A stretch of DNA of 36,641 bases, from contig JACPBX010000010.1 in assembly GCA_016180085.1 (NCBI GenBank), positions 1 to 36,641 of the forward strand, given 5' to 3'. Positions within the stretch are counted from its first letter, which is position 1; every line of letters begins with the position of its first letter. The notes under the pieces were generated by a model that was given only the letters and a program-made list of their open reading frames with translations, had not been told where the DNA came from and made no database searches. The stretch is from Candidatus Woesearchaeota archaeon (lineage in GTDB: Archaea > Nanobdellota > Nanobdellia > Woesearchaeales > UBA10216). A program made the translations under genes and the position numbers. Shown here piece by piece: positions 13,871 to 27,137 of this stretch.

Positions 13871-14554
13871 ATGGTTCTCAAAAAAGACAACAACGCCAAG
13901 CTTCTTGTTCTGGTTGCTGTAGCTGCAGTTGTGCTGCTGCTAAACCAGTGGCAGATAATGGCCATTTCCGACCTGACAGGAGGCAGCGGAGGGTCCTCAA
14001 AAGGGACAAAACTCAACGTCAAGCTGTCAGGCGATGTTGTGCAGGACGCAATAAAGGCAGTAGTCCCAACCGGCACTCCGCTGTATGGCGCAGAACTTGG
14101 CGTGAGCTTTGATGACCCAATAAACAGCCTGAACATACTTGCCAAGCTCGACAGGCAGGTGCCAACCAACACCCTGGCAGAAGCGGAAAAAGCAAGGTTC
14201 ATCAATGTTGGAACAAGAATCAGCTGCGAGTTCTGCTGCGGCGCGCCATCCGTGGTTGACCAAAGTGGAAGAGACCTCTGCGGCTGCTCCCACGCTGCAT
14301 CGTTCAAGGGCCTTTCAAAATACCTTATTAAAAACCATCCGGGCGAGTGGAGTGATGACGAGATACTGCTTGAGCTGACAAAGTGGAAGGCGTTATATTA
14401 TCCCAAGAACATGGTCGAGAAGGCTGTAGCTGCACTGGAGAATGGCATGGAGCTCACGCCTGCAGTGCTTAACGACAGGGATTTGCTCAAGAAAATATCA
14501 GCAGGCGACACAACAAGCATCGGAGATCTCCCGTCAATGGTCGGCGGATGCTAA
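13871..14554 (+). CDS. Membrane-anchored Cys-cluster protein ending DLPSMVGGC
   Basis: TM anchor; ISCEFCCG, CGCSH; C-terminal MVGGC*. Confidence 0.8.
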   Translation: MVLKKDNNAKLLVLVAVAAVVLLLNQWQIMAISDLTGGSGGSSKGTKLNVKLSGDVVQDAIKAVVPTGTPLYGAELGVSFDDPINSLNILAKLDRQVPTNTLAEAEKARFINVGTRISCEFCCGAPSVVDQSGRDLCGCSHAASFKGLSKYLIKNHPGEWSDDEILLELTKWKALYYPKNMVEKAVAALENGMELTPAVLNDRDLLKKISAGDTTSIGDLPSMVGGC

Positions 14555-16172: not shown

Positions 16173-16185
16173 CGTTTTAAAAGTG

Positions 16186-16297
16186 CGCCGGGAGCGGGAA
16201 CTTCACTTGCCTAGGACAGGTTTTGAACCCGCATGACTATGGTGTACAGTCACTCGCTTAGGAGGCGAGCGCGCATACCAGCTTGCGCCTTCCCGGC
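16186..16297 (-). tRNA. tRNA with anticodon CCT on a tRNA-Ser-type body; 22-nt intron in the T-loop (16221-16200)
   Basis: Acceptor GCCGGGA/TCCCGGC, G73, D-arm GCGC/GCGC, anticodon arm CTCGC-CTCCTAA-GCGAG, 7-bp variable arm, T-arm GCGGG-TTCAAA[intron]T-CCCGC; upstream GAAAAAGATTTATT promoter. Confidence 0.85.
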
Positions 16298-16548
16298 ACG
16301 CTAACTAAAGAATAAATCTTTTTCATATGCCTTTCGGCCATTTTTCCAAAAATCTTTCGATGTTCTCACTAAATATTTTGCCTTTGCTGCAAACGCTTCA
16401 AGTTTTAGGGAATTTTTTGAAAAGTTTTCAAGAACTCCGAAAATAATTTTTAACAATTTTAGTAAAGTTTATTAAGTAGTTAGCATCTTATCTGCTAAGA
16501 CCGTGGTGTACAGGTAAGCGCATGCTATTTGCGCTATTTTTTCTTTTT

Positions 16549-16722
16549 TTATTCCTCAAACCTTCCCTTAACCTTGTACTTCTCAGAAGTCAGAATCTCA
16601 TCAACCTGGCGGTCATAGCTTGTCAAAGAGGCATCTTTTGATGAGAACAGAAGCCTGTAAGCAACATAAGCAGCAGCCGCAGCAACTATCCACATTATAA
16701 TTTTCTGGTCAAGCACAGCCAT
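16549..16722 (-). CDS. 57-aa single-TM small protein (MAVLDQK...EILTSEKYKVKGRFEE)
   Basis: Open frame with TM helix, upstream TTTAAATA; below the ORF-track cutoff. Confidence 0.7.
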   Translation of the reverse strand: MAVLDQKIIMWIVAAAAAYVAYRLLFSSKDASLTSYDRQVDEILTSEKYKVKGRFEE

Positions 16723-25645: not shown

Positions 25646-25787
25646 GGCTGCCGTAGTGTAACGGTCCGCATGCGGCCCTGTGGACAATCTTTTTACTCGC
25701 CCACGGGCGAGCAAAAAGCTTGACCAAAAAACGTGCAACATCGTTGACGGTAAGGCTTAGGACGGGGTTCAATTCCCCGCGGCGGCC
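25646..25787 (+). tRNA. tRNA-His(GTG) with 69-nt canonical intron (25684-25752)
   Basis: G-1:C73, acceptor GCTGCCG/CGGCGGC, loop CTGTGG|A, BHB central helix CTGT/ACGG, T-arm CGGGG-TTCAATT-CCCCG; TATA at 25609-25617. Confidence 0.9.
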
Positions 25788-26802: not shown

Positions 26803-27065
26803 AAATTCCATTCTTTGATTTCTTTTCCCTCCTCCAAACCGTACTCGAACAATGTTTCCATACTATTTTGTATATAGGAAATGTTTAAATAGTTGCTGGT
26901 TTTCTAAACTTTGATTCACATGAAACGAGTTGGTTATCTTCACGGAAAGTGGATGTAGTTCTAAGGTAGCTCTAGCTTTATCGTCTTTAACTGCGGCGAG
27001 TGATTGTCTTCATCGTGACCCTTTTGCGAAAAGGTTCAATCCAAAACTACGATAATTCTCAAACT

Positions 27066-27137
27066 GGCCGTAGTGGTGTAGAGGCAGCACGTGCGCCTGT
27101 GGCGCGCAAGGGCGGGATTCGACTCCCCGCTGCGGCC
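27066..27137 (+). tRNA. Second, intron-less tRNA-His(GTG) with A53.C61 mismatch
   Basis: G-1:C73, acceptor GCCGTAG/CTGCGGC, TGCGC-CTGTGGC-GCGCA, T-arm CGGGA-TTCGACT-CCCCG. Confidence 0.85.

Follow-up and report, generated by a model that had tools for sequence, protein, structure and literature searches.

A long-arm tRNA gene with the anticodon CCU and a divergent complementary mini-gene in a small cassette of a woesearchaeal archaeon

Natural tRNAs in which body and anticodon are at odds offer rare tests of the rigidity of the genetic code, and the published examples are nev-tRNAs and allo-tRNAs. The nev-tRNAs of nematodes are class II tRNAs that derive from tRNA-Leu, are charged with leucine and tend to address rare codons (Hamashima et al. 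2012, PMC3333845). Their charging follows the body, not the anticodon. The allo-tRNAs of bacteria have acceptor/T stems of 8/4 or 9/3 bp and are proposed to work as missense suppressors and/or regulatory RNAs (Mukai et al. 2017, PMC5389517). In this study we analyse a tRNA gene in a stretch of 36,641 nucleotides (hereafter the window) from a groundwater archaeon (Woesearchaeota, DPANN), which is known from a single metagenome-assembled genome that is 83% complete. Like the nev-tRNAs, the encoded tRNA is of class II with a long arm, has an anticodon that is neither Leu nor Ser, is lineage-specific and occurs beside an unchanged code and normal cognate tRNAs. Unlike the nev-tRNAs, which are eukaryotic and have leucine identity, it carries G73 (serine-type and anti-Leu), addresses the commonest Arg codon, contains a T-loop bulge-helix-bulge (BHB) intron and is paired with a cognate antisense mini-gene in a small cassette. 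It is not a nev-tRNA, having G73 rather than A73, an archaeal host and a variable loop unlike the UUAGU of the genome's tRNA-Leu. The likeness to allo-tRNAs is functional only: serine-type identity is combined with diverse non-serine anticodons (AGA/AGG and Leu codons are among those of the allo-tRNAs), the distribution is patchy, and both groups are linked to mobile elements or toxin-antitoxin loci. The window gene differs in being archaeal, in its BHB intron and in its canonical 7/5 stems; the 8/4 and 9/3 folds do not apply, since the acceptor stem has 7 bp, the T stem has 5 bp and A8 cannot pair with C65. Moreover, the reported partners of allo-tRNAs are protein toxin-antitoxin genes, whereas the partner here is a matched antisense RNA gene.

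Two further systems resemble parts of this locus. In ARMAN-2, pre-tRNA-Cys and pre-tRNA-Pro contain BHB introns at position 59/60 (Fujishima et al. 2011, PMC3239211). The window gene shares with them the T-loop position, the hBHBh' layout and a DPANN host with many disrupted tRNA genes, but the ARMAN-2 examples are ordinary tRNAs with matching body and anticodon, so that the intron does not explain the identity conflict. In type I toxin-antitoxin systems, such as hok/sok, an antisense RNA targets the mRNA for a toxic peptide. In archaeal CreTA, an RNA toxin sequesters a tRNA, and the antitoxin is a CRISPR-like guide that acts through Cascade at the DNA level (PMC8501985). The locus described here is likewise a small mobile two-RNA unit in which one RNA is putatively harmful to translation and its matched partner would neutralise or repress it, but the putative toxin would be the mis-decoding tRNA itself, and the putative antidote would act as antisense directly on the D and variable arms of that tRNA. 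No description of archaeal or DPANN long-arm tRNAs with a mismatched anticodon was found in the literature, nor was any paper found on such a pair of long-arm tRNA and antisense RNA. We tentatively favour the reading that the gene encodes a seryl-chargeable missense tRNA which is kept in check by its cognate antisense RNA.

Structure of the window gene

The features of the locus are collected in Table 1. The acceptor stem GCCGGGA/TCCCGGC (7 bp) is followed by the discriminator G73 at 16186, positions 8 and 9 are A8 G9, and the D stem GCGC/GCGC (4 bp) closes the loop AAGCUGGUAU, which has G18 G19 U20 and lacks A20. The anticodon stem CUCGC/GCGAG holds the loop CUCCUAA, with the anticodon CCU at 16262-16260, and the T stem is GCGGG/CCCGC (5 bp). 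Without the 22-nt intron, the 90-nt RNA folds into a perfect class II cloverleaf with a minimum free energy (MFE) of -45.7 kcal/mol; the fold is perfect only in this form, and the MFE fold of the precursor also has the acceptor, D, anticodon, variable and T stems. An earlier note on this DNA, made from the letters alone, had described a full cloverleaf with G73, A8 and no A20, and both the fold and our reading of the sequence confirm these points. Its variable arm of 7 bp stands if the pair U44-A is counted; in the MFE fold the 19-nt arm, U-GACUGU-ACACC-AUAGUC-A, has 6 bp. The conflict that it saw between a serine-like body and the anticodon CCU is present, and the editing of the tRNA that it had considered is neither needed nor indicated.

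Table 1. Positions of the features of the cassette and of the canonical tRNA-Arg(CCU) gene
Feature	Position	Strand	Remarks
Two-gene cassette	16173..16546	.	374 bp; insertion relative to same-genus genomes
Pre-tRNA gene	16186..16297	-	112 nt; class II, 7/5 stems, G73, anticodon CCU; read from sequence
3' exon	16186..16199	-	U60, T-stem 3' strand, acceptor 3' strand, G73; CCA not encoded
T-loop intron	16200..16221	-	22 nt, at 59/60; hBHBh'-like
5' exon	16222..16297	-	tRNA positions 1-59, anticodon included; read from sequence
Promoter-like BRE/TATA block CCGAAAGGCATATGAAAAAG	16318..16337	-	-40..-21 of tRNA gene; putative function
Palindrome TTTTTGAAAA-G-TTTTCAAGAA	16414..16434	.	between the two promoters; candidate operator, putative only
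BRE/TATA-like block AAAGTTTATTAA	16464..16475	+	divergent small-RNA gene
Predicted antisense small RNA	16497..16542	+	~45 nt; ends approximate
Segments of the small RNA	16499-16515; 16518-16534	+	anti-variable-arm, linker, anti-D-arm
Oligo-T tract (T6 C T7)	16537..16550	+	candidate archaeal terminator of small RNA
Canonical class I tRNA-Arg(CCU)	C10:1930-2055		genome G000; A20, 5-nt variable loop

The intron has the helix and bulge layout of BHB-intron tRNA genes interrupted at 59/60, with the T stem GCGGG, a 4-bp helix UUCA:UGAA, 3-nt bulges AAA and GUU, and an inner hairpin. Canonical BHB introns are cleaved after the second bulge base, and the splice point of the 5' exon was placed by this geometry. 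The UUCA:UGAA helix is weak and is absent from the MFE fold. Removal of the intron leaves the usual T loop UUCAAAU. The pattern TTCA ... TGAR, followed by 3 nt and the 3' strand of the T stem, recurs in nearly all members of the gene family described below, and the same layout is found in ordinary tRNAs of the genome, such as the canonical tRNA-Arg(CCU). The genome encodes the splicing endonuclease EndA, at C40:45896-46156, and the ligase RtcB, and the window pre-tRNA is probably spliced. Routine annotation overlooks or mis-types such long-arm intron genes, because the T-loop intron hides their true 3' half. On raw DNA, standard tools, ARAGORN among them, put the 3' end of the tRNA wrongly at 16207/16208, and the Rfam tRNA model gives 30.2 bits with two non-standard acceptor pairs; on the complete relative G039 it gives only 16 hits, owing to introns. 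On the intron-free sequence ARAGORN calls a tRNA-Arg(cct) with a long arm, while the covariance model R1 scores the window pre-tRNA at 86.1 bits. The promoter of its own that the earlier note had assigned to the gene is borne out by a promoter-like block (Table 1) that lies at an equal distance in paralogues and orthologues. The locus is a real tRNA gene of the expressed type, and its promoter-like block suggests that it is transcribed. The earlier note made no explicit mention of an intron in the T loop and missed three further features, namely that the gene has a large family, that its insertion is polymorphic and that a cognate antisense partner lies beside it.

The long-arm family and its origin

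The window gene belongs to a woesearchaeal family of long-arm tRNAs that is lineage-specific and turns over fast, and whose anticodons are non-serine (CAG, AAG, GAA, GAG, CAA, GAU, UAU, CUC and CCU). All members whose 3' end could be read have G73. The window gene is most closely related to long-arm genes whose anticodons are GAA and CAG, and the 1-Mb genome from which the window comes (G000) has seven long-arm genes. In an alignment of 23 members, 89% of the cells pair and compensatory changes occur in 11 of 14 pairs, a level reached by 0 of 500 shuffles, while slid controls give 30-49%. Pairing reaches 99% in the 5-bp anticodon stem, and G30:C40 is GC in 22 of the 23 members and GU in one. 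Compensatory changes are also seen among the CCU orthologues of four genomes. This covariation, together with the intact arms, disfavours the decaying gene that the earlier note had listed as one option. Some other members look degenerate, for example C7:2164, which has no GG in the D loop and has UGCAAA as its T loop.

The earlier note had read the gene as an archaeal tRNA-Ser(GCU) in which position 34 was changed to C. Our comparisons do not support this origin, since G006, G001 and G009 of this genus carry a tRNA-Ser(GCU) of their own with another type of body (U8 C9, a D stem of 3 bp, a variable stem of 4 bp with a GAAA loop, and the loop UUGCUA). Descent from it is rejected because the two bodies differ at many positions, and G001 carries both this gene and a CCU long-arm gene. 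More generally, tRNA-Ser in this lineage has U8 C9, a 3-bp D stem (GCA/UGC or GCG/CGC) and a 4-bp variable stem with a GCAA or GAAA loop, and the window gene does not match it. The only part of the body that is held in common is the acceptor stem GCCGGGA, which is that of tRNA-Ser(GGA). Judged as an archaeal tRNA-Ser, the gene has G73 and the long variable arm but no serine anticodon (NGA or GCU). Of the ordinary tRNAs that the earlier note had wished to see inventoried, G000 has a canonical tRNA-Arg(CCU), while a pattern search for GCU loops found no tRNA-Ser(GCU) there.

An artefact, in which an ordinary tRNA-Ser(GCU) or tRNA-Arg gene was miscalled or misassembled, might be suggested by the incomplete, single metagenome-assembled source and by the tRNA-Ser(GCU) not found in it. 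Long-arm genes with CCU are, however, also present in G007 (two genes), G001 and G020, three further genomes with this family; the body departs at many positions from the tRNA-Ser(GCU) of the genus and from tRNA-Arg(CCU); and the flanks are collinear with relatives. These results exclude the base-call error that the earlier note had allowed for, and we give an artefact of any kind practically no credence. Two exact-pattern scans of metagenome contigs for the CCU type gave nothing in one case and only class I tRNA-Arg genes and coding DNA in the other.

Charging and the meaning of AGG

It has been established that G73, and then G30-C40, are strong elements for both bacterial-type and archaeal SerRS, that G73 is an antideterminant for archaeal LeuRS, and that the arginine identity set consists of C35, U/G36 and A/G73 (PMC9976931). 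G000 encodes one SerRS, at C15:35297-36600, which is of the bacterial type with a coiled-coil N domain; its LeuRS lies at C18:18589-21309. Weak Seryl_tRNA_N matches beside the family member on C14, considered as a possible second SerRS or SerRS-arm-like partner, belong to a DUF7121 coiled-coil protein and are noise. Since SerRS ignores the anticodon and reads the long arm and G73, the single enzyme could charge the window tRNA with serine, and the G73, long arm and G30:C40 of this tRNA suggest that it does. Across the family, G73 and the acceptor type stay constant although the anticodons are for Leu, Phe, Ile, Glu or Arg, which points to one anticodon-blind synthetase rather than five. Two observations speak against the seryl reading. 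The A8 in place of U8, and D and variable arms unlike those of the genus tRNA-Ser, could weaken folding or SerRS recognition, and C35 and U36 are arginine determinants through which ArgRS might charge the tRNA.

The earlier note held that AGG still encodes arginine in this organism, and tallies at conserved columns agree. At 34 such columns AGG stands for Arg 29 times, Lys four times, Gly once and Ser never (22 Arg and 2 Lys in PolD-DP2, IleRS and LeuRS against five other families; 7 Arg, 2 Lys and 1 Gly in eIF2-gamma and neighbours). CUG, CUU, UUC and UUU also keep their standard meaning, and a code change at AGG, CUG, CUU or UUY is rejected by the same type of tally. The canonical class I tRNA-Arg(CCU), from which the window body differs at many positions, is conserved in 8 of the 9 other genomes of the genus with an identity of 93-100%, whether or not they have a long-arm CCU gene. 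The window tRNA signals no code change, and the housekeeping decoding of AGG is done by the canonical tRNA-Arg(CCU).

One might suppose that the window gene is simply an extra arginine isoacceptor, a harmless second tRNA-Arg(CCU) which ArgRS would charge through C35 and U36, G73 being allowed. These three bases fit the arginine identity set (PMC9976931), and AGG is the commonest Arg codon (26 per 1000 codons, 56% of Arg codons), so an extra supply could be useful. The tRNA lacks, however, both A20, the main arginine determinant in the systems studied, in whose place it has U20, and the class I body, its own being class II. The argument for one anticodon-blind synthetase is also against this explanation, as is the distribution, since the long-arm gene is missing from most genomes of the genus while the canonical gene is conserved. 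It further leaves the cognate antisense partner unexplained, and we regard it as improbable.

With AGG making up such a share of the Arg codons, active insertion of serine would come at a very high price, and this favours either tight silencing or a non-translational role. In the latter case the ribosome would not use the tRNA-like RNA, although the RNA would be produced and might be charged; together with its antisense partner it would serve another purpose, possibly as a regulatory RNA pair, as an aminoacyl donor for a tRNA-dependent enzyme, as a decoy or sponge for a tRNA-binding factor, or as cargo of a selfish cassette. The standard meaning of the five codons in spite of seven such genes in a 1-Mb genome would be expected under such a role, and A8 is unusual. 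Within one clade the anticodon switches between CCU and GAA at all three bases, and one orthologous locus has different cassettes in G007 (CCU) and G008 (CAG), as though no purifying selection acted on decoding. In bacteria, many variants of allo-tRNA(UAU) were inactive in translation and were tied to toxin-antitoxin systems and transposons (PMC5389517). However, the anticodon loop retains its decoding features (7 nt, U33, A37 and the well-paired 5-bp stem), G18 G19 and the T loop UUCAAAU remain intact, the anticodons of the family are not random but cluster on abundant sense codons, and no partner enzyme was found next to the cassette. We consider a non-translational role rather unlikely, though worth keeping in view, and the window tRNA may be used by the ribosome.

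The cassette and its antisense mini-gene

The window gene lies within a cassette that is an insertion relative to other genomes of the genus. The flanks of the cassette can be aligned with G005, at 83% and 79% identity, and with G007; both genomes lack the cassette and have a spacer of only ~50-100 bp between the same convergent genes. With model R1, no family member was detected at this locus in eight relatives (the two aligned same-genus genomes and six more), and in relatives the genes that neighbour the tRNA gene in the window adjoin no family member. No terminal repeats or target-site duplication were seen at the cassette ends. Judging from these alignments, the tRNA gene came recently, as a 374-bp unit together with a divergent mini-gene.

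This mini-gene starts from a BRE/TATA-like block, AAAGTTTATTAA, which is invariant in 11 of 11 aligned units, one of them from another genus. The predicted small RNA begins ~22 nt after the block, and all aligned units have a T-rich tract after the anti-D segment. The predicted duplex of the small RNA with the mature tRNA has an energy of -49.3 kcal/mol, against -25.6 +/- 3.7 for shuffles, and pairs the D and variable arms while the anticodon arm is looped out. An upstream mini-copy is found at 7 of 7 long-arm genes of G000 (z 3.0-7.4), compared with 0 of 18 ordinary tRNAs (z at most 2.1). Each long-arm gene of the main clade examined has such a divergent mini-gene upstream, which runs from promoter to oligo-T and whose predicted ~45-nt RNA is the complement of the D arm and variable arm of the cognate tRNA. 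The best match of each module is its own tRNA: cognate duplexes average -49.7 kcal/mol and non-cognate ones -30.3 +/- 5.9, and the own partner is the best for 14 of 14 tRNAs. No recognisable partner module was found for one CCU copy (G007:C19) and for the GAG-type gene (C36). The locus thus has what is expected of an antisense-controlled pair, a second RNA gene with promoter and terminator motifs and complementarity to its own partner. These features suggest that the mini-gene is transcribed and that its RNA exerts antisense control, although gene conversion could in principle keep the similarity between mini-copy and tRNA without RNA pairing. The strand of the mini-gene is defined by motif conservation only, namely by the AAAGTTTATTAA block, the spacer and the oligo-T; the asymmetry of G-U versus A-C between strands in the mini-copy hairpins is mixed and uninformative for the transcribed strand. 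A C/D-box guide RNA was considered and rejected, as no C or D boxes were seen by eye.

The recent insertion and patchy distribution, as well as degenerate-looking members such as that on C7, could also fit a neutral remnant, a recent long-arm duplicate with a drifted anticodon that is heading for loss, its mini-copy being a partial tandem duplication. But all stems are intact, with compensatory changes among the CCU orthologues, and different genera share the promoter blocks, the BHB layout and the design of the mini-gene, each mini-copy being re-matched to its own tRNA. Independent decay would not lead to this, and we hold a neutral remnant to be very improbable.

A unit that was recently inserted and adjoins a matched antisense RNA has the look of a controlled codon-misreading device, rather than of a mutation or a code change. 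In the reading that we favour, the window tRNA, once charged with serine by the single anticodon-blind SerRS, would be an Arg-to-Ser missense tRNA at the most used Arg codon. The cognate antisense RNA would unfold or sequester the tRNA core, including the arm that SerRS needs, and would keep the tRNA silent unless the balance shifts. The unit may then act as an RNA-only toxin/antidote or inducible-mistranslation module that spreads as a cassette. We speculate further, and consider it possible but doubtful, that it is a self-contained mobile module of this kind, in which a co-evolving antisense RNA neutralises the seryl-tRNA by unfolding its D and variable arms, and that other members of the family likewise insert serine at abundant Leu, Phe, Ile and Glu codons. 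The allo-tRNA-like RNA or programmed mistranslation that the earlier note had named is still the best class of explanation.

What makes the family of wider interest is that ultrasmall DPANN archaea, whose genomes of ~1 Mb have a single gene for each normal tRNA, still retain and exchange a number of long-arm G73 tRNAs for their most used sense codons, while the code stays standard. If the proposed reading is true, these cassettes of a poison tRNA and its anti-tRNA would give archaea, or their selfish elements, a hitherto undescribed means of controlling or weaponising decoding, and would be both a new principle of RNA-only control or addiction that acts directly on decoding and a ready-made natural scaffold for orthogonal tRNAs. 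If it is not, a testable question remains: who charges the long-arm tRNAs, and what spares the proteome? As to how such a unit might be switched, the palindrome between the two promoters (Table 1) is a candidate operator, and related motifs of the form CGGAAA..TTTCCG lie at the matching place in other units.

The window tRNA gene and its intron

A tRNA gene had been proposed at 16186-16297, and our analysis confirms that it is real, since its arms can be read directly from the minus strand (16297-16186) and its predicted spliced form is a perfect class II cloverleaf. On the raw window DNA, both ARAGORN and Rfam call a tRNA-Arg(CCT) with the 3' end set at 16207/16208, and the Rfam match (30.2 bits) has a poor acceptor stem and two non-standard pairs. 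The misplaced end and poor acceptor arise because neither program models an insert in the T loop. The minimum free energy fold of the precursor forms the acceptor, D, anticodon, variable and T stems, and removal of 16221-16200 leaves a 90-nt RNA with this cloverleaf, a folding energy of -45.7 kcal/mol and the standard T loop UUCAAAU. The insert displays the helix-bulge-helix-bulge-helix layout of archaeal introns, comprising the T stem, a 4-bp helix UUCA:UGAA, 3-nt bulges AAA and GUU and an inner hairpin. Such geometry places the intron at position 59/60, a position known in ARMAN-2 (PMC3239211). The TTCA...TGAR layout also interrupts many ordinary tRNAs of the host genome, which encodes both EndA and RtcB, and splicing of the window pre-tRNA is plausible on these features.

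In the host assembly (1.0 Mb, 45 contigs including the window as C41, 83% complete), eIF2-gamma shares 90% identity with its counterpart in a groundwater Candidatus Woesearchaeota MAG. Standard tRNA finders recover only about 15-23 tRNAs from the assembly, and a custom insert-tolerant scan adds many others, which mostly have one to three introns. Two tRNA-His(GUG) genes lie 1.3 kb apart in the window. A repeated hairpin (GACCYTTTT...AAAAGGTYCAATCCAAAAAC) occurs within introns of numerous ordinary tRNA genes, beside tRNA genes and at other loci, and also within the T-loop insert of a long-arm CCU copy in G007 (C19); it resembles an intron module that is mobile or has to do with processing.

Features of the window tRNA gene, its predicted divergent partner and other host tRNA loci (G, genome, G000 being the host; C, contig; L, locus)
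Feature	Location	Strand	Basis or remark
Acceptor 5' strand GCCGGGA, then A8 G9	window gene, from 16297	-	read from sequence
D stem GCGC, loop AAGCUGGUAU	window gene	-	read from sequence
G26, then anticodon stem CUCGC, loop CUCCUAA	window gene	-	read from sequence
Variable arm U-GACUGU-ACACC-AUAGUC-A-U	window gene	-	read from sequence
T-stem 5' strand GCGGG, then UUCAAA	window gene	-	read from sequence
22 extra bases, then U, CCCGC, UCCCGGC, G73	window gene, to 16186	-	read from sequence
BRE/TATA-like block AAAGTTTATTAA, invariant	window 16464-16475	opposite to tRNA gene	alignment A2
Non-conserved spacer, about 22 nt	past AAAGTTTATTAA	opposite to tRNA gene	alignment A2
Anti-variable-arm segment, short linker, anti-D-arm segment, oligo-T tract, in order		opposite to tRNA gene	alignment A2
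Canonical class I tRNA-Arg(CCU)	G000 C10:1930-2055		A20, G73, own T-loop intron; custom scan
Canonical tRNA-Phe(GAA)	G000		custom scan
tRNA-Leu, A73, anticodons GAG, CAA, UAG	G000		custom scan
tRNA-Ser, anticodons UGA, GGA, CGA	G000		custom scan
tRNA-His(GUG)	window 25647-25787	+	acceptor GCUGCCG, C73, anticodon-loop intron; missed by ARAGORN and Rfam
tRNA-His(GUG)	window 27067-27137	+	intron-less; sole one of the pair called by ARAGORN/Rfam
Repeated hairpin	window about 25690-25735, about 27030-27060
Repeated hairpin	G000 C3:6346, C3:26765, C18:15197, C30:4536, C11:10697, C6:3279, C39:2533

Genetic code, descent and probable charging of the long-arm family

The genetic code of the host is standard. 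We tallied alignment columns in which homologues from other lineages agree. For eIF2-gamma and its neighbours, at an agreement of at least 80%, AGG stands at 7 R, 2 K and 1 G columns, CTG at L in 13 of 13, CTT at 12 L and 2 I, TTC at 8 F and 1 Y, and TTT at 6 F, 1 Y and 1 G. For the invariant columns of PolD-DP2, IleRS and LeuRS against five other families, the counts are 22 R and 2 K for AGG, 13 L and 1 I for CTG, L in 20 of 22 for CTT, and F in 14/14 for TTC and 12/13 for TTT. Neither tally places Ser at an AGG column, which upholds the earlier note's view that AGG still encodes Arg. Of the Arg codons, 56% are AGG, which makes up 26 in every 1000 codons and is the 12th most frequent codon overall; CUG is 5th, CUU 11th and UUC 17th, so that the anticodons of the long-arm family aim at abundant codons, a feature that differs from nev-tRNAs. 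A non-translational role for the window tRNA seems less probable than the missense reading set out below.

The earlier note derived the gene from tRNA-Ser(GCU) by a change at position 34, a derivation that the genus tRNA-Ser(GCU) contradicts. This tRNA, present in G006, G001 and G009 and not found in the incomplete host assembly, has a different body, with U8 C9 versus A8 G9 in the window gene, a 3-bp D stem, the variable arm U-GUCC-GAAA-GGAC-U and an intron-interrupted anticodon loop UUGCUA. Nor is CCU a base-call error, because long-arm CCU genes also exist in G001, twice in G007 and, outside the genus, in G020; G001 carries both a long-arm CCU gene and tRNA-Ser(GCU). With the anticodon loop masked, a descriptive 72-column tree, built without support values, groups the window gene with other A8-type genes (79-87% identical) whose anticodons are CCU or GAA, so that a single clade varies at every base of the anticodon. 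Genomes both with and without a long-arm CCU gene keep the canonical tRNA-Arg(CCU), and its exons are 93-100% identical in 8 of 9 other genomes of the genus, with a freely varying intron.

In each of the 25 genomes of the taxonomic family, a covariance model built on the 5' 75 nt of long-arm tRNAs (A1/R1) finds 4-19 matches, the low scorers including ordinary class II and class I tRNAs. Among matches individually read out, the long-arm G73 genes have the anticodons CAG (five), GAA, CCU and a Ser-like GAG in the host; AAG (four), CAG (two), GAA (two), GAU and GAG in G008; CCU (two), CAG (four), GAA (two), AAG, CAA and CUC in G007; UAU in G017 and G040; and GAU and GAA in G039 and G030, from other families of the order. 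In an alignment of 23 members, pairing holds in 89% of cells and compensatory changes occur at 11 of 14 pairs, which 0/500 shuffles reach; slid controls give 30-49%. Neutral decay of the window gene, set beside this pairing, appears improbable.

Bacterial-type and archaeal SerRS depend strongly on G73 and, next to it, on G30-C40, and G73 is an antideterminant for archaeal LeuRS (PMC9976931). The sequence features of the family match these rules, with G30:C40 being GC in 22/23 members. The host has one SerRS, of bacterial type with a coiled-coil arm. This suggests serine as the amino acid with which the window tRNA would most probably be charged. Charging with arginine through C35 and U36 would be an alternative and seems improbable, if marginally less so than decay.

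Many members carry A34 in an AAG anticodon (G008 C6:39079, C5:162162, C4:6947, C6:147550; G007 C20:28978; G006 C10:3958), unusual for Archaea, where G34 is normal; tRNA-Leu(AAG) has been reported in ARMAN-4 and ARMAN-5 (PMC3239211). The host LeuRS (L237, C18:18589-21309; 906 aa, PF13603 editing domain) shares 48-53% identity with the enzymes of G027 and G039 but only 31-32% with the different LeuRS, about 950 aa long, of G038 and G030, so that two LeuRS types coexist within one order. Directly downstream of the C14 CAG long-arm tRNA lies a DUF7121 coiled-coil protein (L295:1036-1938; C14:11030-11932). Its Seryl_tRNA_N matches are weak (E 0.003-0.009) and look like coiled-coil noise, and we rejected it as SerRS-arm-like.

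The upstream mini-copy and its cassette

In the main clade examined, each family member has a mini-copy of the tRNA on its own strand, some 160-250 nt upstream. The mini-copy runs from an A-rich tract through a D-arm-like segment and UUA to a variable-arm-like segment, without acceptor, anticodon or T arm, and is followed by a variable spacer of ~20 nt and the block CTTAATAAACTTT. It is specific to the long-arm family, being present at 7/7 such host genes (z 3.0-7.4) and at 0/18 ordinary host tRNAs, with Ser, Leu, Arg(CCU) and Phe among them (z no higher than 2.1); the Ser-like GAG gene on C36 (z 2.2, no recognisable module) is ambiguous. Among 13 correctly extracted modules, the adjacent tRNA is the best match for 12 and the second for the other. 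The strongest signal (z 7.4) belongs to the fifth CAG gene (L170, C7:2164-2290), whose D loop is degenerate and lacks GG and whose T loop is UGCAAA; this gene lies 50 nt upstream of tRNA-Gly(UCC). The GAA paralogue L298 (C23:13650-14320) has the mini-copy block in two tandem copies (C23:13715-13810 and 13928-14020), so its partner mini-genes may number two.

On the opposite strand, alignment A2 (11 units, two genera) shows a promoter-like block and an oligo-T tract arranged as in a small archaeal RNA gene directed away from the tRNA gene; from these motifs we infer its transcription. The stretch separating the two promoters contains a palindrome (16414-16434) and related motifs. Pairing of the RNA predicted at 16497-16542 (+) with the mature tRNA would yield -49.3 kcal/mol, compared with -25.6 +/- 3.7 for shuffles; in this duplex the D and variable arms are paired and the anticodon arm is a looped-out hairpin. 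The mean duplex energy in 14 units is -49.7 kcal/mol for cognate partners versus -30.3 +/- 5.9 for non-cognate ones, and every tRNA has its own partner as the best. Units of the distant families (G039, G030) follow the same logic with different parts deleted. Concerted evolution could keep the mini-copy alike without RNA pairing, but it leaves the conserved promoter-spacer-terminator frame unexplained.

Both G005 and G007 can be aligned to the sequence flanking the window gene, with the trx-domain neighbour 87% identical in protein to that of G005. Between two convergent genes, 374 bp (16173-16546) stand where G005 and G007 have a ~50-100 bp spacer, and none of eight relatives has a family member at this locus, which points to a recent insertion; no terminal repeats were found. 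At another locus, a CCU unit of A8 type (G007 C12) and a CAG unit of U8 type (G008 C5:96549) lie between orthologous flanks, so that one cassette has replaced another.

The most economical account, which we favour tentatively and at slightly less than even confidence, has three steps: the window tRNA would be a seryl-chargeable missense tRNA for AGG, its cognate antisense RNA would keep it unfolded or unavailable, and the unit would spread and be swapped as a cassette. Allo-tRNAs (PMC5389517) and nev-tRNAs (PMC3333845) are likewise mismatched class II tRNAs, and the proposed unit would work like antisense or RNA-only toxin-antitoxin pairs such as CreTA (PMC8501985). However, allo-tRNAs have 8/4 or 9/3 stems rather than 7/5, leucine identity in nev-tRNAs relies on A73 rather than G73, the window tRNA is archaeal and its predicted partner is a direct anti-tRNA; the unit thus belongs to none of the three.

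Elsewhere in the host genome, intein-splicing domains occur in the tRNA ligase RtcB and a Lon-type protease (L234, C15:48012-50942, and L227, C20:14186-17647). LAGLIDADG homing-endonuclease domains occur in Lon and in a glycosyltransferase (L240, C22:132749-135154), the latter without an intein-splicing match. A single ORF of 10,861 codons (C29:3463-36048) presumably encodes a giant surface protein of the kind that other DPANN archaea have.
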